A DNA stretch of 64,000 bases from a virus. The DNA is taken from the IMG/VR virus record IMGVR_UViG_3300037104_000796, positions 64,001-128,000 of that record; one strand, written 5' to 3'. The position numbers and the translations under genes were made by a program. Each line of letters opens with the position of its first letter. Position 1 is the first letter of the stretch. Below, piece after piece: positions 1,261 through 62,784 of the stretch. Under the pieces are notes generated by a model. The model did no database searches and was not told where the DNA came from. It worked only from the letters and a program-made list of their open reading frames with translations.

Positions 1261-3075
1261 TTACAATCCTAAATCTGTTCCACCTGTGTCTCCACCTGTT
1301 TCACCACCAACTTCTCCACCACCTGCTTCACCACCCGGTTCTTCAGGTGCTCCGCCGCCTAAGTCCATTCCTGCACCGGCTCCAAAGTCCATTCCTCCAC
1401 CGCCTCCGCCAAGGTCTCCGCCGCCAGCTCCTTCATCTCCTGTACCTTTAGTAGCATTTACACGTTTAACAGCATCTGCAATACGGGTAAGTTGTTCTCT
1501 TCTTTCTTTCTTATATCTTTCATTGATCTTGATATCTTCATCAGTAAAGTTCATGTATCTTTCAACCAAGAATTTAGGGTCAAAATACATACCTTCATTT
1601 GTGATATTTCCTTCACCATCAACTTCTGGCTGATGTACACCCATAAGGGTATTGACCATTTCAGCACCTTTGCCATCAATATCTCTTTTCTTAGCTTCTG
1701 TAAATAAGTTTTCTTCAACGAATTCAAGACTGATTGCACCTCTTAAAGATTTATCTTTAATGAATACAGGGTGTTTGAGACAGAACTGAATCCATGTAGG
1801 TTTCATTAAAATTTCTTGCATAATAGAACGAATTCTATTGATGAAATAATTGAAACGAATTTCTTCTCTTGCAATACCTTCGCCACCTGATGACCAATTT
1901 GCTCCACCACCGCCTTCATCTCCAGTTGATTGGAATCTGTCTTTTGGAATTTTAGTTTCGATAATGAATCTCTTCCAGAAATAATCAAGTGCCATAGTTC
2001 CTGATAAGTCATATCCTGCAGGTTGAATAGAATCTATAATTGTTTCTTGACCTTCTTTTGAAGGTATAATGTATTGTTTTGCGAATGAGAAGTTTGGTGT
2101 TCCGTTAATTGTAACTTCACCACTATGATAATCAATTGTGATATCCTCTTTGTACATACCACGTAATTCAGAAAGTCTTGTTCTTGCTTTTACTTCTGAT
2201 TGTGTACCGATTGGAACTACAATTTTCATACGATATTGTGAGTTAACAACGTTCCAAATAATACGTGAATTTTCCATTGTACGTAACATATTGAATGCTC
2301 TTACAAGTCTTTCAACGTATGATAATCTTGATATGAAGTTTCCCCTAGCCCATGATATGTAAATTACGTTTCCATCAACTAATTCTCTTTGTCTTTCAGC
2401 ATCACCTCTAAACTGAATCCATACTCGATATTCATTATCATTTTCATCTTTACGAATTTCTGGTTCAAGAGAGCAAGGATCAAGTTCTTTAAAACCTAAA
2501 ATGTTTTTTGCATCTTCACTGTTTTCACCATCGTAAATAATTTCAAATGCCAAGAATCCATCAATAAGGAATTTTTTAGTGTAATGCCATCCATCATGGC
2601 CTTGATTAAATCCGAATGCATAATAAACTTTCTTATATGCTTCATTAAGGTCATCAACAATTTCTTTAGCTTTTTCAGCTTTAAGAACTGATTTAAGTTT
2701 TTGCGTATTAGGATAAGCAAAAAAGTTATTATCGTCCTGAACAATTGTTTCGTCTGCAATAACTTCGATAACGTGTTCTATTTCTCCATTCATAGCAAAT
2801 CTACGAAGGAAATCTCTTCTTGTAGGATATTCTTTATCAAAGAAAGCAATAAATTCTTTTGCTCCAATGTCCATACCTGATGCCAACTGATGTTGACCAT
2901 AAAGGCTATACATTGAATCTTCTTGTACTTCAGTAATACCAATTGATTTAGATTGCTTAATAATATTTTGATCCCATCGCATTCCGATAATTGACAAATA
3001 ACGAATATTTCGTTGAATGTTATCTATAAAAGAACGAGGTCCTCTGTCTAAATTTCTAAGTCCGAATCCGGCCAT
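1261..3075 (-). CDS. gp20: T4-like portal protein
   Basis: EIEHVIEVIADETIV, FLIDGFLAFEI and LSYVERLVRAFNMLRTMENSRIIW blocks match the gp20 pattern; Gly/acidic tail. Confidence 0.9.
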   Translation of the reverse strand: MAGFGLRNLDRGPRSFIDNIQRNIRYLSIIGMRWDQNIIKQSKSIGITEVQEDSMYSLYGQHQLASGMDIGAKEFIAFFDKEYPTRRDFLRRFAMNGEIEHVIEVIADETIVQDDNNFFAYPNTQKLKSVLKAEKAKEIVDDLNEAYKKVYYAFGFNQGHDGWHYTKKFLIDGFLAFEIIYDGENSEDAKNILGFKELDPCSLEPEIRKDENDNEYRVWIQFRGDAERQRELVDGNVIYISWARGNFISRLSYVERLVRAFNMLRTMENSRIIWNVVNSQYRMKIVVPIGTQSEVKARTRLSELRGMYKEDITIDYHSGEVTINGTPNFSFAKQYIIPSKEGQETIIDSIQPAGYDLSGTMALDYFWKRFIIETKIPKDRFQSTGDEGGGGANWSSGGEGIAREEIRFNYFINRIRSIMQEILMKPTWIQFCLKHPVFIKDKSLRGAISLEFVEENLFTEAKKRDIDGKGAEMVNTLMGVHQPEVDGEGNITNEGMYFDPKFLVERYMNFTDEDIKINERYKKERREQLTRIADAVKRVNATKGTGDEGAGGGDLGGGGGGMDFGAGAGMDLGGGAPEEPGGEAGGGEVGGETGGDTGGTDLGL

Positions 3076-7454: not shown

Positions 7455-9671
7455 TTATATCTTTTTATTTGATTGAGTTTTTGTTGCATCTTTTTTGGGT
7501 CTTTTCAAGAATACCTTTTTGATTTTTTTAGGTTCTTCAAGATCATCGGGGTTAGCATCTTTATTGAAGTTTGTTCTTTCAAGATTCTTTTCTGGAGGAC
7601 CTGCTGCTTCTTTCTTTTCACCTGGTTTTTCTGATGGTTTTTCACCATTTTCTTCAGTATCTCCTTCTTTTCCAGCTGGTTCGTCTAATCCAAGATCTAA
7701 TTCTGCAGTATCACTTGATCCGCTATCGCCTAAATCTAATCCTTCTCCGCCTTCTGCTGGTGCAGTACCACCGCCACCAACTCCTGCTTCAGGTTCTGCA
7801 CCTGTATCACCACCGCCTTCAACACCTGCTTCTTCTTCACCTTGTGGGTTTTCTAATTCAGCTTCTGCATCTACTTTATCAGCGTATGCTTCAAGATCAT
7901 CAGCACCTAAGTCAACTTTATCGCCATCTTCTGATGGTTCATCGCTTAACATTTCTGAATCGTCATCGTCAAATGTAACTGCTGAAGAAGCACCACCGGC
8001 ACTACCTGGGGCGGTCATATTTGCCATGCCAACTTCTGTTCCAAAATCATCACCTTCAACATTACTATCGCCTTCTGCTCCACCTTCTTCTCCTTTAGCA
8101 GCCATTGCTCCTGTAGGAACAACTACTGTATAAGATTTACCTGATGAATCATCTTGAACTGTGATGTTTAAGTTTTCACTTACATCTGTAAATGATTCAA
8201 CTTTATTAAGATAATTTTTGTAATCGTTTTTAATATCGTTAAGTTCTTCAACAAGGGCATTTACAACTTCTGTTGCAGCTTTACCTGTTTCATTTGAGAA
8301 TTGTTCGATTTTTCCTTCTAACACGTGAATGTAATCTGTATATTCACGTTTTGTTGAATCAATTTCTGATAAAATTCTTTCTTTGTTTGGAAGAATTTCA
8401 GCAAATGTTTTTGATACATCAAATCTCATATGTTCCATCATAATCTTTTCGGCCTGAATAGGGTTGATATTACGATAGAAAGTTGATTTATTGTTAATAG
8501 GATCAAATGTTGTAATGAAAATGTTATCTCTTAATTTGAATACGTCAGCTGCATAATTAGTGTTTTCTTTAAGATAAACTCTTTTAACAAAATCAAGTTC
8601 TGCGATTTCGTCAAAGTTTTCTCTTAAAACTGCAAGTGTTTTGTAAAATTGTGTGTTTCCACCCCATTCTGCTATTGCTGCAGATTCGTTAATTTGATTT
8701 ACAGTAAATATTCCGCCATTAACATAAGTTTCATTTTCTGTTAAAACTGCGTTGTCGTCTCCAATATATACTTTTATATCTTTACGTGAAACTTCGATAT
8801 TTGGAAGATTGATTGTATCGCATAATGTAGTAAAAGCTTCATCAAGTCTGCCAACGTCTTCTTTTTTAAGTTTATTAACGTAATTATTCTTTTTAACATA
8901 ATATGTTCCATGAACATTAAACAAAGCTTCGTTTTCTCCTAAGTAAAGAATAGGTGAGAAAAGTTTGTCTTCGATATCACATTCTGCGTTTGAATATTCT
9001 AATTGAAGTTGAGTGGCATCCAACATAAGTGCATTAAGAATATCATGAACGAAAGGATCATAACTGAATTTGATCAAAGTTTCTTTTAATGAACTCTTTG
9101 ATTGTTCAGTTTTATCACTTAAATAATTATCAACAACATCTTCAATAAGTGGAATAAGGTAATTGCTGCGAGTTTCTTTCATTACCTCAATGATTTTTGT
9201 AATATCTATGTCATTTTTGTATTGTTTAACTTGACTAGCCAAAGCACTTAATTCTGTATCAACTGCACGTAATTGACTAAATCCAGACATAGCTGAAATG
9301 AAGGCTTCGTAAAGAAGTACTTCTGGAGTTGTTTCTAATTTATCACGAAAATCTTCAAGAACCATTTGAAGGGTTATGTCGAGTTTTGCTTCCTTTTCCA
9401 TTAACGTGTTAACAGCTTTTCTAACACCTAAATGTTTAAGTGCATATACTCTTTTTTGGTTAACAAGCCATTTAGCGATTTCTTTATCGCTTGTATATTT
9501 TGTTAAACCTTCAAAGAGGTTTGTTAACGCAACTCGTTCAATTTCAAGTTGGGCATCAGGAGTAACTCCGTTATAAATTGCCGAACTAATAGCACTGATT
9601 GTTGACTCGCATAATGCTTTTACTTCTTGAACTTGTGTAGTTTCTTTTAATTGATTAATTTTCGTGATCAT
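7455..9671 (-). CDS. Large acidic helical protein, possible prohead core/scaffold
   Basis: Coiled-coil body, many L/I-x-E sites, Asp/Glu/Gly-rich disordered C-terminus; head-gene context. Confidence 0.45.
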   Translation of the reverse strand: MITKINQLKETTQVQEVKALCESTISAISSAIYNGVTPDAQLEIERVALTNLFEGLTKYTSDKEIAKWLVNQKRVYALKHLGVRKAVNTLMEKEAKLDITLQMVLEDFRDKLETTPEVLLYEAFISAMSGFSQLRAVDTELSALASQVKQYKNDIDITKIIEVMKETRSNYLIPLIEDVVDNYLSDKTEQSKSSLKETLIKFSYDPFVHDILNALMLDATQLQLEYSNAECDIEDKLFSPILYLGENEALFNVHGTYYVKKNNYVNKLKKEDVGRLDEAFTTLCDTINLPNIEVSRKDIKVYIGDDNAVLTENETYVNGGIFTVNQINESAAIAEWGGNTQFYKTLAVLRENFDEIAELDFVKRVYLKENTNYAADVFKLRDNIFITTFDPINNKSTFYRNINPIQAEKIMMEHMRFDVSKTFAEILPNKERILSEIDSTKREYTDYIHVLEGKIEQFSNETGKAATEVVNALVEELNDIKNDYKNYLNKVESFTDVSENLNITVQDDSSGKSYTVVVPTGAMAAKGEEGGAEGDSNVEGDDFGTEVGMANMTAPGSAGGASSAVTFDDDDSEMLSDEPSEDGDKVDLGADDLEAYADKVDAEAELENPQGEEEAGVEGGGDTGAEPEAGVGGGGTAPAEGGEGLDLGDSGSSDTAELDLGLDEPAGKEGDTEENGEKPSEKPGEKKEAAGPPEKNLERTNFNKDANPDDLEEPKKIKKVFLKRPKKDATKTQSNKKI

Positions 9672-9691: not shown

Positions 9692-10270
9692 TTAATAATT
9701 TTTTTTATATTTGCCCCTGGGCTTTCCTTTATGGGCTTTTCTTTGTTTATTCTTTGTTTCGTCTGATACTATATGATTCATTAAAGAATTACTTTGGTTT
9801 TTCTTTGTTTCTTCTGAATGTATTTTCCCTATATGAGATATACTCATTAAATGTTTTGTTTCTTCAGTTCTTGTTTTTCCAGTATTCTTTTTTACTCTTT
9901 TTTCTATTATTTCTTTGCTTTGTGTTAAACCTTTATTCCATGCAGGTATTCCTGCCATGTGAAAACTTAAATTTGTGTTAGGCAAATAACGATTATAGCC
10001 ATTAGGAGCCAATGTGTTAAATTTTAAAATATACTCTGATTCACTATTAAGCATATCTTTTGCATTTTCATAATCACTTTGCAAAATTTCCTTTTTAAAA
10101 TTTTCTTTTCCGTATTTTTCGTAATCTTTATTGAGATATTTACTTGATCCCCAATAAATGTCATCTTTTATTTTATCTCTGTAACATACTCTACTACCTA
10201 TATACTGCTTGTTTGTTATTATGTTTGTTATGATATATACGTAATAAAAACATACAGTTCTAGCCCTCAT
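9692..10270 (-). CDS. GIY-YIG homing endonuclease with NUMOD3 repeats
   Basis: YVYIITNIITNKQYIGS, YWGSS, PAWNKG, HSEETK. Confidence 0.88.
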   Translation of the reverse strand: MRARTVCFYYVYIITNIITNKQYIGSRVCYRDKIKDDIYWGSSKYLNKDYEKYGKENFKKEILQSDYENAKDMLNSESEYILKFNTLAPNGYNRYLPNTNLSFHMAGIPAWNKGLTQSKEIIEKRVKKNTGKTRTEETKHLMSISHIGKIHSEETKKNQSNSLMNHIVSDETKNKQRKAHKGKPRGKYKKNY

Positions 10271-10324: not shown

Positions 10325-11680
10325 TTATACTATCTTAACTTGACGGGTAACCCCAAATGCTTCTGTTGAACTTGTTTGTACTAATGGGTCATTATAATTT
10401 GCCACAGAATTGACTACATATATATCTATCGTTTTGTAATCTACTATTCCCGGAAATACAATCGAGCCAAAAGGAACAGCTATATTTTGTATTTTATTAT
10501 CTTCTAAAGTAATGTTTATTGAAGCATCTCCTGAATACACTACTTGATTGGCTGTATTACGCATTTCCAATACGATATTAAATGAAGCATCAGCAGTAGG
10601 TGATAAGAAATAACCAGGATCAATAATTGTAAATGAAGATACATCTATTAAAGGCGGATTAGTAAGTGTTGGGAGTATACTTATTATCGGAGGACGATAA
10701 ATACTTACACTTACACTAGGATCATCCGGCCAAATAATGACAGGATTTTTATAAGTTGTAAATGTTTGTGGGATATTCCAAATATAATATTCATTATTAG
10801 GAACTCCTCTTTCAATAACATTTTTTGTATCTTCTCCGGTATTTGACCAAAGAATATCGACTTTATTAATAATTGTGTTTTCATCTTTATATTCCCATTC
10901 TAATAATAATGGATAACCCTTTGGAACTGTTTCTCCTTGATAATCTGTAACAAGCGTAATAATGCCATCATTTCGAGTTACATTATTATCAATCAATCTA
11001 TGACCAATTCCTACCATGTAGTCATTGTTATTTACTTCTGTGGTTGGATCGAATACAGGTTGATATGTTTCAACTTGTAAATCAAAGGTTATTTTGATTT
11101 TATTTTCAGGTTCAAACGAATAATTAATATTTTTTTCTAACGCAATATCTTCAGGAAAACCTACTGTTGAACCTACTCTCATCCCCTTGTAATAAACATA
11201 GAAGGTAATAGTTTTGTAGAAAAGTTCTCGTATCGCTTGTTCTATTTTTAATGCTGTGATTTGAGTATCTAACCAAAGTTCACAACTAAAATTAACATTT
11301 AACGGAATAGAATAAAGAAATGAACGCATTGTTTGAAGTTGTCCATTAACTTGTTTTAAGTAAGTTCCTTGTATATATCTTGAAGTTATTCTGGCTGAAT
11401 CAATCGGAGAACCCATATAAGTAACTACTCCTCTTGGAATAACATCAAAGTTTCCATCGACAGGTCTAGGTGGAAGACACCAGCCATAAAAAGTATAAAA
11501 ATCTTGCATAAATCTTTCATCACCAGACATATTATAAAACCAGGGAACTTTTACAGTTTCAATGTCTTCATTGCTCCATATTTGTTCATAAGTGATTTTA
11601 TTGTTAAGAATATTTAAAATTCCAGCAATTATCGCTCTTGACAAGATATTTTCATTATTGTATTTTTGATGTAGTGCCAT
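10325..11680 (-). CDS. gp15: Tail sheath stabiliser/tail completion protein (gp15-like) with C-terminal extension
   Basis: VKVPWFY, IPRG and IPLNVNFSCELWLDTQITALKIEQAI resemble the gp15 family. Confidence 0.6.
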   Translation of the reverse strand: MALHQKYNNENILSRAIIAGILNILNNKITYEQIWSNEDIETVKVPWFYNMSGDERFMQDFYTFYGWCLPPRPVDGNFDVIPRGVVTYMGSPIDSARITSRYIQGTYLKQVNGQLQTMRSFLYSIPLNVNFSCELWLDTQITALKIEQAIRELFYKTITFYVYYKGMRVGSTVGFPEDIALEKNINYSFEPENKIKITFDLQVETYQPVFDPTTEVNNNDYMVGIGHRLIDNNVTRNDGIITLVTDYQGETVPKGYPLLLEWEYKDENTIINKVDILWSNTGEDTKNVIERGVPNNEYYIWNIPQTFTTYKNPVIIWPDDPSVSVSIYRPPIISILPTLTNPPLIDVSSFTIIDPGYFLSPTADASFNIVLEMRNTANQVVYSGDASINITLEDNKIQNIAVPFGSIVFPGIVDYKTIDIYVVNSVANYNDPLVQTSSTEAFGVTRQVKIV

Positions 11681-11698: not shown

Positions 11699-14440
11699 TT
11701 AAATTTTATTAGTATTCTTGAGTTCTTTTTTTAAAAAATCAGTCCATTCTCTTCTTGTTTGTTCATCTAAATCAGGATCACTTTCTATTTCCCAAATCCA
11801 GCCTTCCGGTCCGGACAACCATGACGCATCGCCTTCTTTAACTTTTTTATCAGCATAATTTTGAATAATTTTAAGTAAGCCAATGCGCATATCTCTTATA
11901 GGATCAGATTCTTCTGCAAAGGTTTCATTCATACGTAACTTAAAAATCCATCTATTTTGAATAGCCTTTTGTTTGTCAACATTATAAAATGCAGCTAATA
12001 TATGAATAAGTGCTTGTTCTGATCCTGTAAAAATTAATCCGGCAATACCTGATTTATATTCATCTTTCATTTTATATGTTACGCCTGATTTTTTAAAGAA
12101 GTCTCCAACTTCGTTGCCTTCTATACTTTCAATATCATTTTTGTCGGGTTTGAATTTGGTCATTCCATATAATGGAATTGTTCGATATCCTGAGCCAATA
12201 CCCATATCTTTAATAGCATCTGTATCTTCTTTGAATTTTTCATTTATCATATTGCCTTTATCGTCACACATCCATGATTGTAATTCAGGGTGAAGTTTTT
12301 TCAATGCCACGTGTACTTGTTCATAATTTACTACTTGAGGTTTGCTATTAACAGTTAAATACTTTTGAACATATTTTGCTAATCGATTCAGTTTTGATTC
12401 TAAATTTACTTTAAAATAGAGATAATAACTGCTATTAGTGTCATTTAAAATATTTTCTGGAAGATTTTTTATTTTAAGAATAGCTGATAACATTTCTGCG
12501 ATAAACATATCCATTGCTTTTTGAGATTTAAAATCATGAGGACCATATAAACCAATTCCCATACTATGAACTGGGTCTCCTTCTTCTGAAAACTTTTCAT
12601 TAACATGTGCATCAGCCATCACAATTGTTAATCGATTTAATTTTCTGGTCATTGCATCAACAGCAACACCTTTATCATTTTTAAAGCCTTTTACGTTAAT
12701 CATATGTTCTATTTCATCAAAAAATTTATTCTTTGAGTATTCTTTACATATAATCGTATATACTGTATTCCCTAATGCATTTTTATCATATTCTACTGTT
12801 GTTTCATCACCAAACAAAACATAACGAATGTAATCAATGTAATCAACTCCACCGTGTACGTATTTAACTGGAAATAAATTCATTATCTCTTCTTTGAAGT
12901 GATTAGCTCCAATATTCATATCAGCTATAGCATCACCTTCTTCTGAGAATTTTTCATTTACAGATTCTTTTAGGTTTTTTATTTTCCAGTTAGGAACGAT
13001 CTCAAGATATTTTTCGATAAACTCTTTATCTAATGACCATTGATGATAAACTAACTTATTTAAATGTTTTAATGATTTTCTTAAATCCATAAGATCATCG
13101 CAACTATAATAAAAAACACTGGTAATGTCTCCATCAAGATTTCTGAATATTTTATTAAGAATAACATATGAATTTTTAGGATGACTTTGGTTGATAGTTT
13201 TTTTAACTCGTACAATACTTCCTCGTTTTGCATCATCCCAATCGATATCGCCTATACCCATATCGTGAATTGGATCAGAATCAATTACAAATTTTTCATT
13301 TACATTTTTCTTTTCAAAATAAGGATTGACATCTAAGAAAAATTTAATTTCCAACATCTCTGCAACCTTTGTAAGAATTTTAAGTCTTATTTTAGGATCG
13401 TCATAGTCCTTCATTTTCATCTCAAGAGCAGTTATTTCTTCAAAAGATTTTTGAGGAGTTATACGTGGATGTTCAATTAAATTTTTAACAGTATGATACA
13501 TTACTCTTACAAGAGGTACTGCGTATCCTTCGTATTCTTTTGAACATGTTTTTTTGTAATATAATCGATATAAGTCCATGCAACTTCCCGGCGGAATCGA
13601 ATACAAAATCTTTTTTAAACGCTCAATACCACCAATATGCATATCTCTTATGGGATCGCCAACTTCTTCTGAAAATTTTTCGTTAAGGTCAGGATATTTC
13701 CACGATTTTAATTCAGGATGTTTTAATTTGAAAACATATGAAAAATCTAGCCAATCAAATATGTCTTTTCCGTCAACTCTAACGAAATCCTTTATATATT
13801 TTCTTAATGTATTAGCACAACGTCGTTGTTCGGCATAATCTTCTGCAAAAAATATGAAAATATTTTCTTCTGGATCATTTAAAATATTTTCAGGAATTTC
13901 ATCTATATCAAGTATTGCTGTTAAATTTTCAACAATAAATTCATACATTTTATTCGGCGTATCAAAATCTTTATGCGCATACAATCCTATTTTCATATCC
14001 TTTATAGGATCCGATTCTTCTTTGAATTTCTCATTGACTGATTCATTTACATTTATATCAATGCCAAAATGTTTTTTAAGAGCATTAGCAATATCTTTCT
14101 GTATTTCATATTTAGATGGATAAAGCCCCTCTACCAAATCAACAATGCCATTAGCCTTTTTTTTACAAGCTCTTTCAAATGCAATTTGAGGAGAATTTCC
14201 TTTAATTAAATATTTTAAAATATCACATAAACAATACATTTTTTGCCAAACACATTTGTCGCGTCTATTGATAGGTTTTTTTCTATCATCAAAATAGTCA
14301 TAATATACGCGAGATGGAGCTGCATCATTTATCTTTTTTGCATGTTCTTTCCATATTTTACGAGCGCCAATTCCCATATCCTTAATAGGATCAGATTGAT
14401 CTGTGAATTTTTCGTAAAGATTTTCTTTGATGGGTTCCAA
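11699..14440 (-). CDS. Modular polyprotein with 8 EKFxExxDPIxDMxIG tag repeats
   Basis: Eight tag copies separate ~60-125-aa modules; TTG start. Confidence 0.85.
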   Translation of the reverse strand: MEPIKENLYEKFTDQSDPIKDMGIGARKIWKEHAKKINDAAPSRVYYDYFDDRKKPINRRDKCVWQKMYCLCDILKYLIKGNSPQIAFERACKKKANGIVDLVEGLYPSKYEIQKDIANALKKHFGIDINVNESVNEKFKEESDPIKDMKIGLYAHKDFDTPNKMYEFIVENLTAILDIDEIPENILNDPEENIFIFFAEDYAEQRRCANTLRKYIKDFVRVDGKDIFDWLDFSYVFKLKHPELKSWKYPDLNEKFSEEVGDPIRDMHIGGIERLKKILYSIPPGSCMDLYRLYYKKTCSKEYEGYAVPLVRVMYHTVKNLIEHPRITPQKSFEEITALEMKMKDYDDPKIRLKILTKVAEMLEIKFFLDVNPYFEKKNVNEKFVIDSDPIHDMGIGDIDWDDAKRGSIVRVKKTINQSHPKNSYVILNKIFRNLDGDITSVFYYSCDDLMDLRKSLKHLNKLVYHQWSLDKEFIEKYLEIVPNWKIKNLKESVNEKFSEEGDAIADMNIGANHFKEEIMNLFPVKYVHGGVDYIDYIRYVLFGDETTVEYDKNALGNTVYTIICKEYSKNKFFDEIEHMINVKGFKNDKGVAVDAMTRKLNRLTIVMADAHVNEKFSEEGDPVHSMGIGLYGPHDFKSQKAMDMFIAEMLSAILKIKNLPENILNDTNSSYYLYFKVNLESKLNRLAKYVQKYLTVNSKPQVVNYEQVHVALKKLHPELQSWMCDDKGNMINEKFKEDTDAIKDMGIGSGYRTIPLYGMTKFKPDKNDIESIEGNEVGDFFKKSGVTYKMKDEYKSGIAGLIFTGSEQALIHILAAFYNVDKQKAIQNRWIFKLRMNETFAEESDPIRDMRIGLLKIIQNYADKKVKEGDASWLSGPEGWIWEIESDPDLDEQTRREWTDFLKKELKNTNKI
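11879..14419 (-). repeat. Eight in-frame copies of an ~18-codon tag motif
   Basis: Approx. 14366-14419, 13985-14038, 13631-13687, 13250-13303, 12908-12961, 12551-12604, 12194-12247, 11879-11932. Confidence 0.9.
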
Positions 14441-14463: not shown

Positions 14464-16185
14464 TCACTCAACGATTACGATTCGTTTCATAAATTCTGGA
14501 GGAAATGCTTTTCGATTATTGTGTATTAAATCAGCCATTGCCCCATCTAAAATGTAAGTGACTGCCCAGTCATCTTCGCTTCTTACACTTCTACCAGTTC
14601 CTTGCAAAATATTGATGATCGCTTTCCAGCGATACCATTCGGGATTTATTTTTAATTTCGTTGCTACAAATTTATCGCCTAAAGACAGATATGGAACTTT
14701 AGCAAATATTGCAAACCTACTCCAATCATCTTTTAAGTCTAAACCTTCCAATAATGACGGACCCATAAGTACTTTATTTTTATTTACTTTTAGCATTTCA
14801 AGCACTTGTCGTTTTTCTTCTGTCCCATTATAAACTAAAATTCTTCTTTTATTTTTATGTGAAAGTCCATTATGAATTTTTAATGCAAGATCATATGATG
14901 CTGTATGAATGATTCCACTTTCGCCTACATGATTTTCAAGTATCTTATCAATAGTTTCATAAAGCCATGGAAGATTACCCTCTATTTGATTATAAGTCAT
15001 TCTTCTTTTGTTGTAAAAATAAATTGGAGACTTTGTAAAATCAAAATGCGAATCCATTTTAATGTACTTAGCAGTTTTTAAAGAAATACTTCTAAGATAA
15101 TTTGAAGGGTCTGCAAATGTAGCCGACATTAACACTGTGAATCCTGTCCATTGATGAAAATATTTATGCATCATATATGATTCTTCCAAACAATTAAATG
15201 TCAATTCATCTTTGCCTGTAGGATTTTTTACAATATTTCGAGTTGAAGTTTTTTCAATAATGTCATTATAGTCATCAACTTTGCAATGTAAATCTTTAAC
15301 CCAATCACATAAACGTAAAGCTTCCTTCCATTCTTTTGGAGGATCATCATGCGGATAATCAGTTTTAACTTTTTCTTTGAATTTCTCCCAAGTAACTCTA
15401 TAATTGTGCTGGAGATTGTTTTTGATCTCTATTAGGATTTCATGTAAGTTATCTTGATTATCTGTCTTATATAAACTACCAATATCTTCTTTAATATCGC
15501 TTAAGTCTTTATAATGATCATGCAATTTATAAAGTTTAAAAAAATCTGTAAGTTTTTGCAACTTTTCAATTGTCTTGGGATCAAATCGAGGTGAATAATG
15601 ATTTTGAACTATATCGAGAATTTTGTGGCCTTCATCACATATCGTAAAATCACGAGGTGGAAATGGAGTATCATCCATGCTTTGATTAACATAATTCATC
15701 ATTATCAACCAATATGCATAATTCAATAAAGCAGTTTCAGATCCTGAAGCTTTATCTCTTGCTGAAAAATAAGGACAATGATGATAACATGGCATTCGTT
15801 TTGCGGGTTTATTTCTTATACGACAAGTTCCTAAAGAATTCTTTTCCATATTGTCTAAGCAAATATAGTTGTCAATTCCCTTAATGGAACCCCATCTAAA
15901 ATTTCCTTTTGCAAAATCTTTTTCGTATTGTTCTTGGAGTGATAAATCTGATGCGAGAATAAATCCTTTCAATTCTTGTTGATTAAGAATCCATGCAACA
16001 GCCATGCCTATAATAGATTTTCCTGAACCTACCGGAGCATCTAATATAACTGTTTTAGTTTTATTATAATATGCCTTAATAATTTCGATTATTGCTTCTT
16101 TTTGTCCTTTACGCCAAACGAACTCATCGCCAAAAAATGTAGTGCGGAATTCTTCTATTTGTAACTCTAACTGTTCTATAGTCAT
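14464..16185 (-). CDS. DinG/XPD-family SF2 helicase with Fe-S cysteines
   Basis: DAPVGSGKS, DEGH, MSAT, EGLDL, QGTGRSVRSEDD; four Cys in YICLDN...TCR...PCYHHCPY. Confidence 0.88.
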   Translation of the reverse strand: MTIEQLELQIEEFRTTFFGDEFVWRKGQKEAIIEIIKAYYNKTKTVILDAPVGSGKSIIGMAVAWILNQQELKGFILASDLSLQEQYEKDFAKGNFRWGSIKGIDNYICLDNMEKNSLGTCRIRNKPAKRMPCYHHCPYFSARDKASGSETALLNYAYWLIMMNYVNQSMDDTPFPPRDFTICDEGHKILDIVQNHYSPRFDPKTIEKLQKLTDFFKLYKLHDHYKDLSDIKEDIGSLYKTDNQDNLHEILIEIKNNLQHNYRVTWEKFKEKVKTDYPHDDPPKEWKEALRLCDWVKDLHCKVDDYNDIIEKTSTRNIVKNPTGKDELTFNCLEESYMMHKYFHQWTGFTVLMSATFADPSNYLRSISLKTAKYIKMDSHFDFTKSPIYFYNKRRMTYNQIEGNLPWLYETIDKILENHVGESGIIHTASYDLALKIHNGLSHKNKRRILVYNGTEEKRQVLEMLKVNKNKVLMGPSLLEGLDLKDDWSRFAIFAKVPYLSLGDKFVATKLKINPEWYRWKAIINILQGTGRSVRSEDDWAVTYILDGAMADLIHNNRKAFPPEFMKRIVIVE

Positions 16186-16233
16186 CTTTATAGGTTATGT
16201 ATAAAGATTGTATGATAAAAAAAGGCTTAAGTT

Positions 16234-16485
16234 TTACTTAAGCCTGTATTTTTTATGATGTGTTACTTTTTTATTTAGCCAATCTCGTAATTTAACATTT
16301 AATTTGTACAAATCCTCTTCATTGTGGATACGTGGATAAACAGTTTGTGTAATATGCGCTACTACGTTATCAAAATAATGATCAACAACTACACCCGATC
16401 TACTTGGACGACCAATACCCATATCTTTAATGGGATCAGATTCTTCTCTAAAATCTTCGTCAATATGTTCTTTTACAATATTCAT
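16234..16485 (-). CDS. Tag-bearing small protein
   Basis: MNIVKEHIDEDFREESDPIKDMGIG N-terminus. Confidence 0.8.
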   Translation of the reverse strand: MNIVKEHIDEDFREESDPIKDMGIGRPSRSGVVVDHYFDNVVAHITQTVYPRIHNEEDLYKLNVKLRDWLNKKVTHHKKYRLK

Positions 16486-19282: not shown

Positions 19283-19326
19283 TGAACAGTCTTTGTTTTA
19301 TATATCCCAAGCAAAAAGGAGAATGT

Positions 19327-34827: not shown

Positions 34828-35889
34828 ATGAACAAACAAAATGTAATAAGCGCTATCACTAAACATTTAAAAATTAATAATAAAATAATGGGCTTTAAAT
34901 CTAAGAAAAATATTATTTTTATAAATTGGATAAATGATTATTTTAAAAATTCAGAAATAGCAACATCTAGTTTTTTAGAAAAAGTGTGGGTAATAACACA
35001 CAACGATAATATAGAACATTGCGCTACTTGTGGAATTAAATCTGTTTTCGGAAATTTTAATGTTGGTTATCGAAGTAAACATTGTAAAAAATGTGCATCT
35101 CCTGAGGGATATAGAAGATTAGCACAAAAAAGAAAAGAAGAATCTCCGGAAATAATAGTTACAAAAAATTGTAAAGAGTGTGATATAATTTTTTCATATA
35201 AAACGCACAAATTAAATAACACAATAAATAAAGAATTTTGCTCTAAATCTTGTGCGGGCATTTACAATCAGAATAATATGTCCGTAGAAACTATAAAAAA
35301 TAAAAATGAGAAAACAAATAAAACCAATGTAGAAAAATATAAAGACCCGTGGGTAGTTAATTCAAAATATACACGAAATATAACAAAAGAAAAATTAGGT
35401 GTAGAATATCCATTTCAAGATCCAAAAATTATAAAAAAATGCAAAGATACATTATATGAAAATACCGGATATACAAATCCTCTCAAAAATCCTAAAACTC
35501 TTAAAAAGATGCTAAATACAAAAATAGAACGTTATGGAGATTTATTAATTCCTATGGCCAAATATAAAGATTTTAAAATGCCTTCAGGGAAAGTTGTTAA
35601 AGTTCAAGGAAATGAAAGCTACGGATTGAATATTCTTCTTGAAAAATATAATGAAACTGATATATTTGTTGGAAGAAAAAATATAGAAAACGAAATAGGA
35701 CAAATACATTATATTGGAAAAGATCACAGACAACACATATACTATCCTGATATTTACATTAAATCACAAAATAAAATATTTGAAGTTAAATCTAATTTCA
35801 CATATAAAATTCATAAAGAAACTAATGAATTGAAAAAACAAGCCGTTTTAGAAAAAAATATAGAATTTGAATTTATGATAATCAATTAA
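34828..35889 (+). CDS. Homing endonuclease-like protein, PD-(D/E)xK
   Basis: Cys motifs; VQGNE...YYPDIYIKSQNKIFEVKS. Confidence 0.8.
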   Translation: MNKQNVISAITKHLKINNKIMGFKSKKNIIFINWINDYFKNSEIATSSFLEKVWVITHNDNIEHCATCGIKSVFGNFNVGYRSKHCKKCASPEGYRRLAQKRKEESPEIIVTKNCKECDIIFSYKTHKLNNTINKEFCSKSCAGIYNQNNMSVETIKNKNEKTNKTNVEKYKDPWVVNSKYTRNITKEKLGVEYPFQDPKIIKKCKDTLYENTGYTNPLKNPKTLKKMLNTKIERYGDLLIPMAKYKDFKMPSGKVVKVQGNESYGLNILLEKYNETDIFVGRKNIENEIGQIHYIGKDHRQHIYYPDIYIKSQNKIFEVKSNFTYKIHKETNELKKQAVLEKNIEFEFMIIN

Positions 35890-36245
35890 TTTATGTGATA
35901 CTTTTCGCCCCACAATAATAAATATGTAAAGCCTTTATCATCTTCAAAAATTAATTTTTCACGAATATCATCATTAGAAGTATATCGAGTAATTATAAAT
36001 ATGTAATCTCTACCGTCGGCATCAAATGCGCCATATTCTGAACGACGTCTTTTAAACTTTCCAGATATTGTTTTGTAAATTAGCGAACTTAAAAATTCAC
36101 GTACTTTATTATCATACTGATTTTCAATTTTCAAATCTTGAATATACTTCAAAATATCTATTTTTCCAATACCCATATCAGTGATAGGATCACTATCTTC
36201 TGTGAAGCCCATTCTTTCATCAATATGTTCTCTAACTAATTTCAT
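35886..36245 (-). CDS. Tag-bearing protein (cargo family A)
   Basis: MKLVREHIDERMGFTEDSDPITDMGIG. Confidence 0.8.
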   Translation of the reverse strand: MKLVREHIDERMGFTEDSDPITDMGIGKIDILKYIQDLKIENQYDNKVREFLSSLIYKTISGKFKRRRSEYGAFDADGRDYIFIITRYTSNDDIREKLIFEDDKGFTYLLLWGEKYHIN

Positions 36246-36901
36246 TAAAAACCTCTTTCTTCAACTATAAATCTATAATCGAATTTCTTTTTAGATACTA
36301 TCATGCGTCCATTGGTGCCTCCATAGAGTGTCGTATTTCCATGAGTTTTAAAATAGTCACGGGATATATCCATTTGTTCTTTGTTGTTATATTTTTTAAA
36401 ACGTAAATCTTTATAATTTGTGCCATATCGTATAACATTGTATATGACAATATATGACTCTGGATAAAGTTTTAATCCTGAGTGCCACGATGTAAATTGG
36501 CCTGATTGATTTTTAGTTACTGCAAAACCCATTCTTTTGGCTTTAAGTACTGCACCGGGTTTGAGAGTTTCATATGAGAACCCGCCAATACCCATATCAG
36601 AAATGGGATCAGAATCTGCATCAGTAAAAGCTTCATCTAATCCAGGCCAACCACCATTTGGAGGTACATCATCTAAAGCATCTTCAGGTAATTCGTTAAA
36701 AATTTTCATCCAATCAAACGCAGGATATTTTTTATGGAATCTACGAATTATTTGTTCATATTCATATTGAATATCATCTTCAGTTTTTGCAGCTCTTTTT
36801 AATTGTTTAATAAATTTAGACATAAGTCCTATTCCTAAATCTTGAATAGGATCAGATTCAGCTTTAAATTTCTCGTATAATTGTTCTCTAACTAATTTCA
36901 T
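36245..36901 (-). CDS. Two-module tag-bearing protein
   Basis: MKLVREQLYEKFKAESDPIQDLGIG plus internal LDEAFTDADSDPISDMGIG. Confidence 0.8.
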   Translation of the reverse strand: MKLVREQLYEKFKAESDPIQDLGIGLMSKFIKQLKRAAKTEDDIQYEYEQIIRRFHKKYPAFDWMKIFNELPEDALDDVPPNGGWPGLDEAFTDADSDPISDMGIGGFSYETLKPGAVLKAKRMGFAVTKNQSGQFTSWHSGLKLYPESYIVIYNVIRYGTNYKDLRFKKYNNKEQMDISRDYFKTHGNTTLYGGTNGRMIVSKKKFDYRFIVEERGF

Positions 36902-37266
36902 TCTTCAATGAATATTTTTTTATCATCGTAAGGAATAGTGTAAGAAGCTTTTTCTTCAGTATCAAAAACACTTAATCCGTGTGAATCTTCATCAAATTCA
37001 TTTATTTTACCAACATATATTGTGTATTTTCCCCAACCTTTTCCAGTTTTAATTGAATCGTTTTTAACCACAAGCATCTGATTAAATTCGCCTGTTATAT
37101 GTTTATTTAAGAGTGCATCTTTAAAAGTTTTAATGAAATTTTCACGATATTCTTTTTTTAATCGCGAACGTGTTCTTCCCGCATTAAAACCGCCGATTCC
37201 CATATCGTGAACGGGATCGCCTTCTTCACTAAATTTTTCGTATAAATATTCTCTTACTTTTTTCAT
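36898..37266 (-). CDS. Tag-bearing protein (cargo family A)
   Basis: MKKVREYLYEKFSEEGDPVHDMGIG. Confidence 0.8.
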   Translation of the reverse strand: MKKVREYLYEKFSEEGDPVHDMGIGGFNAGRTRSRLKKEYRENFIKTFKDALLNKHITGEFNQMLVVKNDSIKTGKGWGKYTIYVGKINEFDEDSHGLSVFDTEEKASYTIPYDDKKIFIEE

Positions 37267-37646
37267 TAGTCATCTATTTGATTATCTAATCCCGCTTTTC
37301 CACTTTTCATAGCTTCTTCAGGTGTATTCCATTTATATGGCCCATCTCCCATATAAGGTTCTCCAGTATCTGGAATTGCAATATAAAATGTTTTAACTAT
37401 CGTTCCCTGTTTATCTCTTAATACTCCTAAAGCATTTACTTGTACAATTTTAAGATGAAGACTTCGATATTCAATTATGTCAATTATTTTTTCTTTAACC
37501 GGAAATTCATAAGCGCGCACACTCCAATCCCATTCATATTGTTTGTCCAATTTAGCCATTTGAGCATCATGTCCAATCTCCATATCTTTTATAGGATCTG
37601 AATCTTCGGTAAAGCCTAATGCTTCATATATAAATTGTGCTCTCAT
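37266..37646 (-). CDS. Tag-bearing protein
   Basis: MRAQFIYEALGFTEDSDPIKDMEIG. Confidence 0.8.
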   Translation of the reverse strand: MRAQFIYEALGFTEDSDPIKDMEIGHDAQMAKLDKQYEWDWSVRAYEFPVKEKIIDIIEYRSLHLKIVQVNALGVLRDKQGTIVKTFYIAIPDTGEPYMGDGPYKWNTPEEAMKSGKAGLDNQIDD

Positions 37647-38041
37647 TACTTTATAAGATAATTTTCTTCAGGCAATACCCTGTAAATGTTAAATACTGCA
37701 TCTCGTGAAGATGTTGCCTCGGCCTTTTTATCAAAAAAATATAATTCGGCTCCATTTAAATAGCTGTTATAATCATTTATAGTAAAAGTTATTCTATTAG
37801 TTTTTTTAAATGGCTTTTCTCTTACTGCTTTAACTTGTTCAAATATTCCAGAAATGATTTTTCCTTTTAATGAATTTAAAAAAACTTGCCATTTATCACG
37901 TTTCTTTCCAAAATCTTTAATTTTATCATTTTGTATAGTTTTAAGAGCTTCTGTTTTAAAATTTACATTGCTTCCAATACTCATATCATGAACAGGGTCA
38001 CTTACTTCATCAAACTTTTCAAATACAAATTGTGCTTTCAT
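37646..38041 (-). CDS. Tag-bearing protein (cargo family A)
   Basis: MKAQFVFEKFDEVSDPVHDMSIG. Confidence 0.8.
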   Translation of the reverse strand: MKAQFVFEKFDEVSDPVHDMSIGSNVNFKTEALKTIQNDKIKDFGKKRDKWQVFLNSLKGKIISGIFEQVKAVREKPFKKTNRITFTINDYNSYLNGAELYFFDKKAEATSSRDAVFNIYRVLPEENYLIK

Positions 38042-40569
38042 TTCGGTATTTTGTATATTTTATTTTTATACATTACTCTTAATCCACGCATTTTATTCTC
38101 ATCCAAAATATCTGCATCTCCCTTAGGAACAAAAATCATAGAAGCATTTGCATATCTATTGAATTTCACTAGAACAGTTTTTACTTGTCCTTCAGTTAAA
38201 GAATGCGTTAGACTTCCTGATTGATTTTCTTGTTCTATACTTTGCAATGCTATGTCATATCCTATTCCCATATCATGTATCGGGTCTGATTTTTCAGTAA
38301 ACTTTTCATTAAGTTGTGGATAAAAATTATCCGGTTGCAACTCTTCTGCTAAGTTTTCTATTTCAGTTATCCTTTGAACTTCAATATTTACTTGAATGCT
38401 TTTATCTGTTCTTCTCGTTCCTTGATTAACACGAATTTGAATAACAACACTATAAAGAATTTCTGCAGTAACAATATAATATTTTATTTCAAGTCCGGCG
38501 TTGTTATTTCCATCTTTTATGAAAATCTTTCCATCATAATCTTCATACGCTTTATTGTATAAACTTACACCACCGTTTTGTGGAAATTTATGAATCTTAA
38601 CTTTATTAGGATCGCCATCTTTATTCCCTTGAAATTTAAAGAATGCTGGATTTTGTCCTAAGCTCAAACTATACGCGGCCAAACTGATAAACATGTTATC
38701 TTCAGCAACTTTTTCTAAAAGATAATTTAACATCTTTAAAGATCCGTATTTTGCTTTTGCCGCTGTAGAATCACTAAATCCTTCAACTGTTCCTTCAAGT
38801 CGATAATTAAATGAATCGGCTTCTTTTAATTTTGATATATTTGTAGGAATTTTATTTCTTTGATTAATGATTTCGGTCATGAATCGTTCGGGAGTCCACG
38901 TTTGTTCTTCTTTTGTTAAATTATAACGATCAGACACTGTCTCGTGTTTTGAAATATAACTCTTTCCTTTTCCACCTTGAGCAGTTTGTTCTTTTAATGA
39001 AATGGCTAATGCCAAAATATTTTGGTTTTCAGTTTCTAAATCATCTGCAAAAATATTATTGTAATCGCCGAGTTTAAGTTGTTCAGTTTCTTTTTGTGCG
39101 GCTTCGGTCCAACGATCAAGAATTTCTTGTTTTTTGCCCGGTTTAACAAGCATCATATCCATTGGATTCCATTTGTCTACTGCATTAGCAGCAAATCCGA
39201 TTCCTTTAGCAGCTTCTTTTTTAATATCAGTAAAGAATTTATCACGATATATTTCCCAATCTGAAAAATTTGTTTCTTTTAATTTCTTTCCAATTGACAT
39301 TGCATTAAAAATACTGTTTACGAAAAGTAAATTGTATTTGTCGCCTTCTTGTGTTAAAGTTCTAAGAATATAATCAGTATCCTTTTCATCCATGCCTTTA
39401 ATGCGATTATCAGTTATATCTTTAACAATTTTTTCAATCGTATTAAAATAATTGGCTTTCTTCTCTTCTTCTTTGCCGATTTTCTTAAATGGTTCATATT
39501 CTTCTTCTGTTTGGAAGAAATAAACAACCAAACCTTCTTTAAAAACTGTAGGAGTTTGCGTCATTTGACCACCTGAAGAAACACCGGAATATTTTACTCC
39601 GTATTTATTTCCATCTAATGTGTAAAGCAAACCTGGGAATTTTCCTGATACAGCTCCTGGCTGTCCGGGATAGACGAGTCTCATTGAACTTTTATCAAGG
39701 TCTAAATTAAATTCATCTGATACCTCAGTAAAGTCTTTTACGAATTGATCATCGGAAGTTTTTGCAATATTTTCAATACGTTTTCCTGTGCTATATTTGT
39801 ATTTTGCAGGATATTTTTTTGCCACTTCTCTTAATAAAAATGTATTTCCGGTTCCTTTGGTATATAATTTGGAATCAACTTCATTTAATGATGGGTAAAA
39901 TGGTTCATGAACGCTTTCATCACCAAGAGTTGCCATCTGCCATTGACGTTTTGATTTATATTTAGGACTTTTTGAACCAAAACCATACGGCACTTCTTTT
40001 TTGCCTGCGCCTGGAGGAATTAAGTGTTTGATTTGTAATTCTTCTGGATGTCTTTCATATTTTTTATTATATTCATCAGGAGTAACAAATTTTTGAGTTT
40101 TTGCATCCGGGTGCCAATCTCCCCAAACTGGAAATATTGCATAATAATCATCATTAACTGGTCTTGTGGGATATTTTTTAAGTTTTTTGAAATTTTTAGA
40201 AGGAACTTCTATTTTCCATTCACCATCGAAAAAGTCAACTTTTACTTCATCTTCTTGAAGTTTAATATTTAAATCTTGTAATACTTTTTTAAGCTTTTCT
40301 TTATTCTCGGGGAAATGCCAAAACGTTACGATTTTAAAATCAAAGAAAAGTCTTCCCGCATATTGACCACGACCATCACCATAATATTCTTCTGGATAAT
40401 CATCAAGATATTTCATATCATCGTGTGTTGTTTGACGCTCACCGATAAGTAATTTTTCATTGTAATAAGAAAAAGGCATCGTGTTCGTATCATCCCAGTC
40501 TATTGCACGATTCTTCTTTGGATCATATATTGAGTTTGGATTTTCGAATAATCGTGGGTATAATGACAT
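38038..40569 (-). CDS. Three-module polyprotein; central module nuclease-like
   Basis: Junctions LYPRLFE, FYPSLNE and FYPQLNE-KFTEKSDPIHDMGIG; central DKWNPMD...AISLK. Confidence 0.7.
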   Translation of the reverse strand: MSLYPRLFENPNSIYDPKKNRAIDWDDTNTMPFSYYNEKLLIGERQTTHDDMKYLDDYPEEYYGDGRGQYAGRLFFDFKIVTFWHFPENKEKLKKVLQDLNIKLQEDEVKVDFFDGEWKIEVPSKNFKKLKKYPTRPVNDDYYAIFPVWGDWHPDAKTQKFVTPDEYNKKYERHPEELQIKHLIPPGAGKKEVPYGFGSKSPKYKSKRQWQMATLGDESVHEPFYPSLNEVDSKLYTKGTGNTFLLREVAKKYPAKYKYSTGKRIENIAKTSDDQFVKDFTEVSDEFNLDLDKSSMRLVYPGQPGAVSGKFPGLLYTLDGNKYGVKYSGVSSGGQMTQTPTVFKEGLVVYFFQTEEEYEPFKKIGKEEEKKANYFNTIEKIVKDITDNRIKGMDEKDTDYILRTLTQEGDKYNLLFVNSIFNAMSIGKKLKETNFSDWEIYRDKFFTDIKKEAAKGIGFAANAVDKWNPMDMMLVKPGKKQEILDRWTEAAQKETEQLKLGDYNNIFADDLETENQNILALAISLKEQTAQGGKGKSYISKHETVSDRYNLTKEEQTWTPERFMTEIINQRNKIPTNISKLKEADSFNYRLEGTVEGFSDSTAAKAKYGSLKMLNYLLEKVAEDNMFISLAAYSLSLGQNPAFFKFQGNKDGDPNKVKIHKFPQNGGVSLYNKAYEDYDGKIFIKDGNNNAGLEIKYYIVTAEILYSVVIQIRVNQGTRRTDKSIQVNIEVQRITEIENLAEELQPDNFYPQLNEKFTEKSDPIHDMGIGYDIALQSIEQENQSGSLTHSLTEGQVKTVLVKFNRYANASMIFVPKGDADILDENKMRGLRVMYKNKIYKIPK

Positions 40570-40608
40570 ATCGATACTTTATTTTATATATTTAAGACAG
40601 GATAAACA

Positions 40609-41540: not shown

Positions 41541-41789
41541 TTATTTGTGTTTTTCTCGGTCATTGTTAGGTTCTTCCCAATCTACTTCATTTAAAGCTTC
41601 ATTAATTACTTCTTGAAGTTCATCAAATTCAAATCCTACAACTGCCGCTTCATAAAATAATTCTGTCAATTCCATTACTAAACCTTTGCGATCTTTTGCA
41701 TCATATGATGATCCGCCATCTTCTTTATCACCTTCAAACCAATCTAAATCTGATTCGTTAAGTTTTTCTTTTACAAATTTACCTTTCAT
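41541..41789 (-). CDS. Small acidic protein with L-N-E leader
   Basis: MKGKFVKEKLNE start. Confidence 0.55.
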   Translation of the reverse strand: MKGKFVKEKLNESDLDWFEGDKEDGGSSYDAKDRKGLVMELTELFYEAAVVGFEFDELQEVINEALNEVDWEEPNNDREKHK

Positions 41790-45131: not shown

Positions 45132-45584
45132 TCATAATAGTGTTAATTTTCCGGTTATCGTGTCTATTTTTTCTGATGCGCAAGGTCCGATAGCGCATGC
45201 CGTTATTGTTATTTCTCCACCAAATTCAGTAAGTCCTTTATCCTCAATAAGAGAACATGGAAGACCGGCAGCTTTTGCAGTTTGATAAATGTTAACCAAT
45301 TCGGCAAGTGAATCAACACCAACTACGATTTTCTTGAACATTCCAGTCATCCATTCATACATTTCATCACCATTATCTCCAAGAGGAAGAGTTATTTTTA
45401 ATTCTTTCTGTTTATAATTCAGTTCAATAGGACTGGCGTTTTCAATTGGTTTGTTCAAATAATTTGGGTACATATAATTGAATATGACTGCCATAGAAGC
45501 GTGACTTCCTTGAGCCACCATTTTGCCTTTTCTCATATTTAAATCCTTTCGGAGTATTATGACTTGTTTTACGTCTTTATTCAT
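45132..45584 (-). CDS. pth2: Peptidyl-tRNA hydrolase type 2
   Basis: KQVIILRKDLNMRKGKMVAQGSHA, KKIVV, IEDKGLTE, TACAIGP. Confidence 0.92.
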   Translation of the reverse strand: MNKDVKQVIILRKDLNMRKGKMVAQGSHASMAVIFNYMYPNYLNKPIENASPIELNYKQKELKITLPLGDNGDEMYEWMTGMFKKIVVGVDSLAELVNIYQTAKAAGLPCSLIEDKGLTEFGGEITITACAIGPCASEKIDTITGKLTLL

Positions 45585-46595: not shown

Positions 46596-46607
46596 ATTTA
46601 TAAGTTT

Positions 46608-54117: not shown

Positions 54118-54212
54118 TTTTTTAATTTTAATTGTTTTTTTTAATGTTATAGATAAATATAATCATTATTTCTGACAAATAAAAATTTTTGATGGATTAT
54201 TTTAACAATTTC

Positions 54213-54449: not shown

Positions 54450-54450
54450 A

Positions 54451-62376: not shown

Positions 62377-62395
62377 TTGTGTTTGTTTTTAAAAA

Positions 62396-62752: not shown

Positions 62753-62784
62753 TTTTTTGATTTGTTTAATTTATTTTTGTTTAT

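Follow-up and report, generated by a model that had tools for sequence, protein, structure and literature searches.

Eight tagged cassettes in one viral reading frame: a shuffled chain that may be loaded into the phage head and cut

The 913-residue reading frame and its eight modules

The window analyzed here is a 64,000-nucleotide stretch (positions 64,001 to 128,000) of the IMG/VR virus record IMGVR_UViG_3300037104_000796. The whole record, G000, which belongs to an uncultured giant phage related to T4, has 162,358 bp with 31% G+C and is estimated to be 40% complete; coordinates are those of the window unless another record is named. On the minus strand lies an open reading frame (ORF) whose product, a protein of 913 residues and 106.8 kDa, carries eight copies of an acidic tag of 15 to 16 residues with the pattern K-F-x-E-x-S-D-P-I-x-D-M-x-I-G. 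The ORF, its N-terminal leader and the eight modules that begin with these tags are laid out as follows.

11699..14440, minus strand: whole ORF, 913 residues plus stop; TTG start at 14438-14440, stop codon at 11699-11701
14411..14440, minus strand: 10-residue N-terminal leader MEPIKENLYE, ending in L-Y-E, similar to the capsid-targeting sequence (CTS) of T4
14030..14410, minus strand: module 1, residues 11-137, 14.8 kDa, isoelectric point (pI) 9.2; tag KFTDQSDPIKDMGIG at 14366-14410; ends in NVNESVNE, that is, two VNE sites
13679..14029, minus strand: module 2, residues 138-254, about 14 kDa, acidic; tag at 13985-14029; ends in DLNE
13295..13678, minus strand: module 3, residues 255-382, about 15 kDa; 16-residue tag KFSEEVGDPIRDMHIG at 13631-13678; ends in NVNE
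12953..13294, minus strand: module 4, residues 383-496, 13.5 kDa; tag at 13250-13294; ends in SVNE
12596..12952, minus strand: module 5, residues 497-615, 13.7 kDa, pI 5.2; tag at 12908-12952; ends in HVNE
12239..12595, minus strand: module 6, residues 616-734, 13.8 kDa; tag at 12551-12595; ends in MINE
11924..12238, minus strand: module 7, residues 735-839, 12.0 kDa, pI 8.8; tag at 12194-12238; ends in RMNE
11702..11923, minus strand: module 8, residues 840-913, 8.7 kDa, pI 4.7; variant tag TFAEESDPIRDMRIG at 11879-11923

The TTG start aligned with the ATG of P0002, a syntenic orthologue in a relative (L016), whose protein opens with MKSVKENLYE. The tag Asp stands at residues 17, 144, 262, 389, 503, 622, 741 and 846, and the distance from motif to motif is 105-127 residues. 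Directly before each internal tag is a [VLIM]-N-E site (PhiNE below, with Phi for V, L, I or M): SVNE137, DLNE254, NVNE382, SVNE496, HVNE615, MINE734 and RMNE839. These are the same seven sites as those listed in an earlier reading of this DNA, made from the letters alone (the original prediction), which had also claimed eight tagged cassettes in one chain. This claim held up. The tags are not due to chance: their pattern matched 17 times in a six-frame translation of the window, always in a coding frame, versus 0.01 times in 100 shuffles. In the 913-residue protein, 8 [LIVM]NE triplets were observed versus 1.05 expected; all 8 are in linkers and none is in a module core. The fraction of identical tag residues encoded by the same codon was 0.61, versus 0.57 expected from codon usage. 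The tag codons vary as codon usage predicts, so that it is the peptide, not the DNA, that is constrained. A DNA-level repeat or recombination site was rejected on this ground. Internal translation starts at the tag Met were rejected as well because the peptide upstream of this Met is itself conserved.

We next compared the modules with each other. Modules 2 and 6, originally described as clear paralogues, proved to be so: blastp of their tag-free cores gave an E value of 1e-17 at 35% identity (3e-23 and 41% with the tags). The relationship proposed for modules 1 and 3 was confirmed by profiles only and is that of remote paralogues; pairwise BLAST found no similarity (E > 1), while jackhmmer reached 1.5e-5 at iteration 2 and hhalign of nonoverlapping family alignments gave a probability of 97.3% (E of 2.7e-11, 96 columns). 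A weaker resemblance had been suggested between module 4 and the second module of the gene at 36245-36901. Here, hhalign gave 79.5% (E of 1.5e-5, 83 columns), with 0.1% for two mismatched module pairs used as controls, and the two modules are probably related. Apart from the pairs 2/6 and 1/3, the modules of the chain are unrelated in sequence. Searches of Pfam and PHROGs returned no family for the ORF at E ≤ 0.01 and none for 10 other tagged proteins; domains of the peptidase, MuF or portal type were not found in the 913-residue chain.

In a full-length MAFFT alignment, every module fragment ended up on module 6, whether the tags were included or not. Since no registered full-length alignment could be obtained, we folded anchored one- and two-module constructs with AlphaFold2, covering residues 126-275 and 271-492 of the chain. 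In the first model (linker, tag 2, module 2, linker and tag 3; 53-row alignment), a compact core had a predicted local distance difference test (pLDDT) score of about 90-97, and the flanking linkers and tags had scores of 51-66, with a one-turn helix at DPIxDM only. The second (module 3, linker plus tag 4, and module 4; 53 rows anchored on the central tag) had a mean pLDDT of 89.7 and a predicted template modeling (pTM) score of 0.53. In it, module 3 was all-alpha with six helices (pLDDT of 90-97), module 4 was alpha/beta with a small sheet (93-98), and the pLDDT dropped below 50 exactly at residues 380-385, VNEKFV. According to these models, modules 2, 3 and 4 have confident, mutually different folds joined by flexible linkers. 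This is the outcome that had been expected of a structure prediction, and neither construct shows one cooperative fold or a solenoid. The models also suggest that the tag lies outside every fold and would serve as a linear docking motif recognized by one common partner. Foldseek found no match at E ≤ 1e-3 for module 2 (against the PDB) or for modules 3 and 4; in a VIA-wide search, the best Z scores were 3.9 and 6.1, respectively, and module 4 gave weak SH3/FeoA-like rows only, with a Z of about 5, all of these values being below the stated noise level.

Tags and cassettes among related viruses

To place the locus among its relatives, we compared it with two of them, in which the gene order of helicase, tagged chain, a 451-residue gene and a gene of about 740 residues, and further on the portal, is kept. 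The genes of the window referred to below, other than the chain, are as follows.

14464..16185, minus strand: DNA helicase gene, upstream of the ORF and 23 nt from it
1261..3075, minus strand: T4-type portal (gp20) gene, Pfam Portal_T4 at 4e-52
35886..40569, minus strand: array of six overlapping tagged genes, stand-alone and two-module, led by a late-type promoter motif at 40591

In the comparison with one close relative, that of P0002, the flanks were 85-90% identical and the chain was 37% identical and rearranged. With a complete 405-kb relative, G001, the flanks were 63-79% identical, and the chain was 29% identical over part of its length, with some modules in common. Variable cargo genes between conserved flanks, a mark of the T4 internal proteins, are thus found here. 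The number and order of the modules also differ, P0002 having 10 modules in the order 4,2,3,6',6'',6,x,1,7,y. In this orthologue, module 6 is triplicated (52-65% identity), modules 3 and 7 have counterparts with 60% and 64% identity, respectively, and the counterpart of module 1 stands seventh or eighth. One of its ten tags, at about residues 235-260, has decayed to ...DPIHDMGID. Therefore, tags can drift within a chain.

When 461 modules from 215 tagged proteins were grouped, they fell into about 120 families, which occur in many orders and positions and also in single-tag genes; the modules are thus built like the stand-alone tagged genes, as originally proposed. The family of module 2 comprises 64 modules, stand-alone tagged genes included, and that of module 4 has 30 or more members in varied positions. 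The family of module 5 (F7) has 7 members, never stand-alone in this sample, and module 8 has one homologous module, in P0007. A two-module tagged gene downstream of the portal retains the whole leader KLVKENLHE at its internal joint (...KLVKENLHEKF...), which is, from its sequence, a fossil of gene fusion. Growth by duplication and fusion, the origin first suggested for the chain, is borne out by the permuted and duplicated modules of the relatives and by this fossil leader, and the comparisons of sequence support well the view that tagged cassettes have been duplicated, fused and shuffled as the locus evolved. We are nearly certain that the ORF encodes a shuffled chain of independent tagged cassettes.

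The distribution of the tag was examined by several searches. Among 1.84 billion representative proteins, 1,642 matched a profile of 150 tag segments at E ≤ 1e-3, of which 114 had E ≤ 1e-30. These proteins carry 1 to 10 tags each, and the 913-residue ORF with its 8 tags ranked second. A word-indexed search gave 32 multitag homologues of 515-1418 residues, some with ankyrin repeats. A strict back-translated DNA pattern of the tag matched 68 stretches of IMG/VR contigs; against 32 million prokaryote genome contigs, it matched twice, both times in bins of metagenome-assembled genomes (L091, CAZIVH010000039.1, Candidatus Peribacteria; L092, CAZDZI010000057.1, Woesearchaeota), and these two are probably misbinned phage contigs. 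The whole ORF and the consensus leader plus tag had no match by megablast or tblastn in 50,697 GenBank phage records. A locus search keyed on peptides of the whole protein gave no match, the peptides picked being variable ones, and a full-text literature search for the motif DMGIG returned unrelated GYF-domain papers only. As judged from these sequence matches, the tag family is a feature of viruses only.

In a logo of 440 tags, the positions outside the search pattern were also conserved (E in 96%, K in 84% and F in 97%), and the most invariant part was I-G, with I in 98-99%. The consensus leader of 184 N-terminal tags was MKLVREHINE. Internal linkers preserve a degenerate second half of this leader, Phi-K-E-S-[VLI]-N-E, and PhiNE was always contiguous with the tag in this set.

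Putative head-protease sites in a complete relative and the possible processing of the chain

The relative G001 is complete (405,016 bp, with terminal repeats; L089 is a stretch of it), and 60 of its 475 ORFs are tagged, with 82 tags in all. At L089:10344-11003, it encodes a Peptidase_S77 domain (2e-17) with conserved catalytic His and Ser. In a single 781-residue ORF (L089:8658-11003, minus strand), this protease is fused to a 580-residue scaffold-like tail rich in PhiNE, unlike in T4, where genes 21 and 22 are separate. The fused gene adjoins a gp23-type capsid gene and has two tagged genes directly upstream; in the T4 record, the order is 20-67-68-21-22-23, with the small core proteins ahead of the protease gene. 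For PhiNE, 1.33 occurrences would be expected in the protease-scaffold and 0.26 in the capsid protein; 11 and 3, respectively, were observed, 2 of the latter being within the first 43 residues. In the remaining proteome, PhiNE occurs at 1.19 per 1000 residues. The sharing of a putative cleavage motif with the scaffold and the major capsid protein, classes of protein that are gp21 substrates in T4, is thus found in G001 as motif statistics only. Among 47 protease homologues, the catalytic domain ends with L-x-R-V(85%)-N(89%)-E(100%)-S. A pairwise alignment placed the C-terminal KEITES and MALAEA of T4 gp21 opposite KQLNES and GILNED of the G001 protease. For the capsid protein, the start of the propeptide aligned with that of T4 gp23 (KW.P..E..GL), with HALNE/AAMGG and the gp23 site LTE/AEIGG falling in different columns; by this alignment, HALNE/AAMGG is a candidate only for the equivalent of the gp23 cleavage site. 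A complex prediction with protease residues 1-162 (45 rows) and a 30-residue linker plus tag (147 rows) had a score of 0.00, which counts neither for nor against binding.

The protease gp21 of T4 cuts after L/I-X-E (PMC9026906), and the T4 internal proteins are targeted to the core by N-terminal propeptides of 10-19 residues, which are cleaved off afterward (PMC9026906, PMC3012670). The leader of the 913-residue chain has this form, with 10 residues and L-Y-E at its end, and 5 of the 10 are identical to those of MELITELFDE in Alt of the T4 record. Besides the T4-type portal, the record encodes a large terminase and T4-like replication genes. Two tagged genes (G000 62105-63237, outside the window) are found downstream of the portal, roughly in the place of the T4 core genes 67/68, with small ORFs and homing-endonuclease-like genes in between. 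The 205-residue gene after this pair was considered as a protease and rejected, as it has no family and no PDB relative and is unlike the G001 protease.

A late-type promoter motif, ATATATAAA[AT]?[ATC]A, containing the T4-late-like TATAAATA, was found 14-34 nt before the start codon of 19 G000 genes (in the window, for example, at 19305, 40591 and 3101) and before 63 genes in G001, mostly at 15-28 nt. The TATAAATA-containing motif is common to the heads of tagged clusters and to the genes for the portal, neck, tail tube, large fibre-like protein and protease-scaffold. It also precedes many homing-endonuclease genes. This sharing of the motif with virion genes suggests that the tagged system is expressed late.

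About ten proteins of the record have a leader of the type MK(K)LV(K/R)ESLNE or MKAQFVFE without the DPIxDMGIG tag, and one of them is a 554-residue AAA-type ATPase with the late-type motif. Genes of this kind are given below; their sequences suggest that leader and tag are separable signals.

41541-41789, 56683-56958 and 56975-57838 (window): leader-without-tag genes
45229-46893, 52471-52782, 135885-137072 and 151715-152332 (G000): leader-without-tag genes

Taking sequence and analogy together, we lean toward a polyprotein that is loaded into the head and cut at PhiNE. The chain would be made as a single protein, as the open frame and the orthologues show, and would be recruited into the assembling prohead core through the T4-CTS-like leader, the tags, or both, to go by analogy and gene position. 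There, a T4-type S77 protease, activated in the prohead, would cut after the Glu of each PhiNE, the P1 residue, whose change to Asp blocks processing in T4; the enrichment of the motif in the expected substrates points to this step. Eight small proteins would be freed in equal numbers, each with a tag at its new N terminus, since a cut after Glu leaves the tag on the product, and at infection they would be ejected along with the DNA, to act on the host. The locus would then probably be a hypervariable "cargo magazine" of eight independently folding cassettes of 9-15 kDa, with linkers carrying a T4-type head-protease site plus the tag.

Several observations weigh against a head-loaded, cleaved chain. 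The link to the protease rests on G001 because the record of the window is a 40%-complete, 162-kb fragment in which no S77 protease gene and no capsid gene were found. PhiNE is contiguous with the tag, and both could belong to one binding motif; leader-only proteins exist, and a leader-type site can therefore do without the tag. The pI of the modules ranges from 4.7 to 9.2, unlike that of the T4 internal proteins, which are uniformly basic. Sixty tagged ORFs in G001 are a very large load for one capsid and could point elsewhere. The papain-like C1 peptidase of the phage, which has a homologue inside a tagged cluster of G001, could cut after the invariant I-G. Finally, the 913-residue ORF is without a late-type motif of its own, lying 23 nt behind the helicase gene, and a terminator-like hairpin at 16223-16245 parts this helicase-ORF unit from the upstream late-motif operon. 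The hairpin has a perfect 10-bp stem, reads as a terminator on both strands, and is located between a small tagged gene (16234-16485) and the helicase gene.

The presence of a tag after the presumed cut suggests a further, tentative reading, in which KFxExSDPIxDMGIG is a second, retained address, apart from the cleaved leader, that marks each cassette for a later step. Head retention, tail passage, docking to a host target and timed turnover via the Lys-Phe N terminus are possible steps of this kind, and we hold none of them firmly. An unlikely alternative to cleavage is that the 19 residues of PhiNE plus KFxExSDPIxDMGIG form one docking motif and that the intact chain is a multivalent tether with up to eight copies for avidity. 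Its target might, at a similarly low probability, be sites that recur on the scaffold or along the inside of the capsid wall, or a host oligomer. The constant contiguity of PhiNE with the tag fits such a tether, as do the predicted flexibility of the tag, similar to that of a linear binding motif, and the variation from 1 to 10 tags per protein. The G-I-G core of the tag also resembles the targeting peptides of encapsulins, short flexible peptides with a Gly-hydrophobic-Gly core that address unrelated cargo inside an HK97-fold shell; this likeness is peptide resemblance only, and an encapsulin cargo carries one such peptide, at a terminus and unconnected with any protease site. However, PhiNE without a tag is enriched in the scaffold, at the N terminus of the capsid protein and at the end of the protease domain of G001, the N-terminal leaders end in the same Phi-x-E at residues 8-10 as in T4 propeptides, and nothing in the modules, whose folds are unrelated, indicates a joint function.

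We consider it improbable that the tag directs proteins to a different destination than the head or is the substrate of a different enzyme, such as a papain-like C1 peptidase cutting after G-I-G. Papain-type enzymes have a P2 preference, and Ile would be at P2 in such a cut. Leader and tag together would then be lost as a propeptide of 25 residues, or the internal tags would be cut out as spacers, both with no better chance. A Peptidase_C1 (papain-family) gene is indeed present (G000 54171-54920, minus strand, 8e-15), with a homologue in G001 (363311-364087, 32% identical) that lies between tagged genes within a tagged cluster; no part of the tag varies less than I-G; and tagged genes make up 13% of the G001 ORFs, which is many for a capsid. 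On the other hand, the C1 gene of G000 is not adjacent to tagged genes, tagged genes stand beside the protease-scaffold gene in G001 and downstream of the portal in G000, and the heads of tagged clusters have the late-type motif of virion genes. The regular spacing of the motifs, at 105-127 residues, could also be that of one cooperative structural repeat protein (a solenoid, fibre or decoration protein) with the motif as the structural repeat. This we find hardly credible, since neighboring modules differ in confident fold (all-alpha module 3 versus alpha/beta module 4), the two-module model has a pTM of 0.53 with low-confidence linkers, and most modules are unrelated in sequence, shuffled, and found alone. 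Homologous units in one continuous fold, as in structural tandem repeats or solenoids, were thus not what we found.

Known systems and further genes of the locus

The head-loaded, cleaved chain proposed here is, by analogy, most like the T4 internal-protein/Alt system, which is its closest working likeness. In T4 (IPI-III, Alt and gp67/gp68) as here, a leader of about 10 residues ends in Phi-x-E, and unrelated small cargo proteins have only the address in common; a T4-type S77 protease and portal are present in the lineage, and the locus is hypervariable between conserved flanks. The differences are that T4 cargo consists of single proteins, whereas up to 10 cassettes per chain are encoded here; that gp21 sites are L/I-X-E, whereas P2 is nearly fixed as Asn here; and that T4 is without a second tag, whereas a conserved 15-residue tag lies downstream of the presumed cut and would remain on the products. 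The T4 set is also far smaller than the 60 tagged ORFs with 82 tags of the 405-kb relative. Multicassette chains, a near-fixed Asn at P2 and a second tag, which would be retained, set the system apart from T4; its specific features are the conserved downstream tag and the scale on which this is used.

In phiKZ, 201phi2-1 and SPN3US, a diverged gp21 homologue processes dozens of head-internal proteins, recognizing a short motif and cutting on the C-terminal side of Glu (PMC9026906, PMC7411985). Several of these head proteins belong to paralogous families, and their processing is Glu-directed, as proposed here. However, they are mostly single proteins that lose propeptides, no common 15-residue tag or multicassette chain is described for them, and the lineage and capsid type differ from those of the tagged system. 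Polyvalent proteins are chains of many domains, which are predicted to travel in the virion into the host and for which processing into separate domains has been proposed (Iyer et al. 2017, PMC5512222). Their domain composition is shuffled, as here. They have recognizable enzymatic conflict domains and often their own zincin-like peptidase, whereas the chain has neither (no Pfam or PHROG match); conversely, it has, unlike them, a uniform tag and a head-protease-type site at every joint. Several recognizable enzymatic or effector domains, with a metallopeptidase of their own or a MuF/portal fusion, mark the polyvalent proteins, and these were not found in the chain. The statement of the original prediction that processed polyproteins are unusual in tailed phages is a fair one for the published literature searched.

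If the head-loaded, cleaved chain is real, uncultured giant relatives have expanded the small head-delivered set of T4 into an extensive combinatorial system, in which dozens of unrelated mini-proteins travel under one address peptide, are shuffled as cassettes and can be dosed equally through one cut chain. PhiNE plus the tag would then be a sequence rule for injected phage proteins in metagenomes, which 1,642 protein clusters match, and would give access to a pool of small domains for which searches gave no family or fold match (modules 2-4) and whose likely targets are host defenses. One possible use of the natural two-part tag would be to load T4-like capsids with foreign proteins. A testable question would also be raised, namely, why a targeting-type peptide remains on the product after cleavage. 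Should the tag be a retained address, this would be a virus-only delivery system that takes up about 13% of the genes of a 405-kb phage, with the polyproteins as equal-dose magazines of mini-effectors.

Further genes were noted around the locus. A 451-residue gene (10325-11680) and a 738-residue gene (7455-9671), both on the minus strand, always follow the chain toward the portal; they are 63-90% identical in relatives and have no Pfam or PHROG match, and a relative's copy of the longer gene carries the late-type motif. A GIY-YIG/SegE-like homing endonuclease gene (9692-10270, minus strand) is inserted between the two, and no gene was called at this place in the otherwise syntenic L016. Many homing endonuclease genes are scattered through the genome. 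In G001, a 145-residue ORF consisting mostly of collagen-like G-x-Q/G-I-T triplets (L089:6273-6710, minus strand) lies directly downstream of the major capsid gene and may encode a head fibre or decoration protein.

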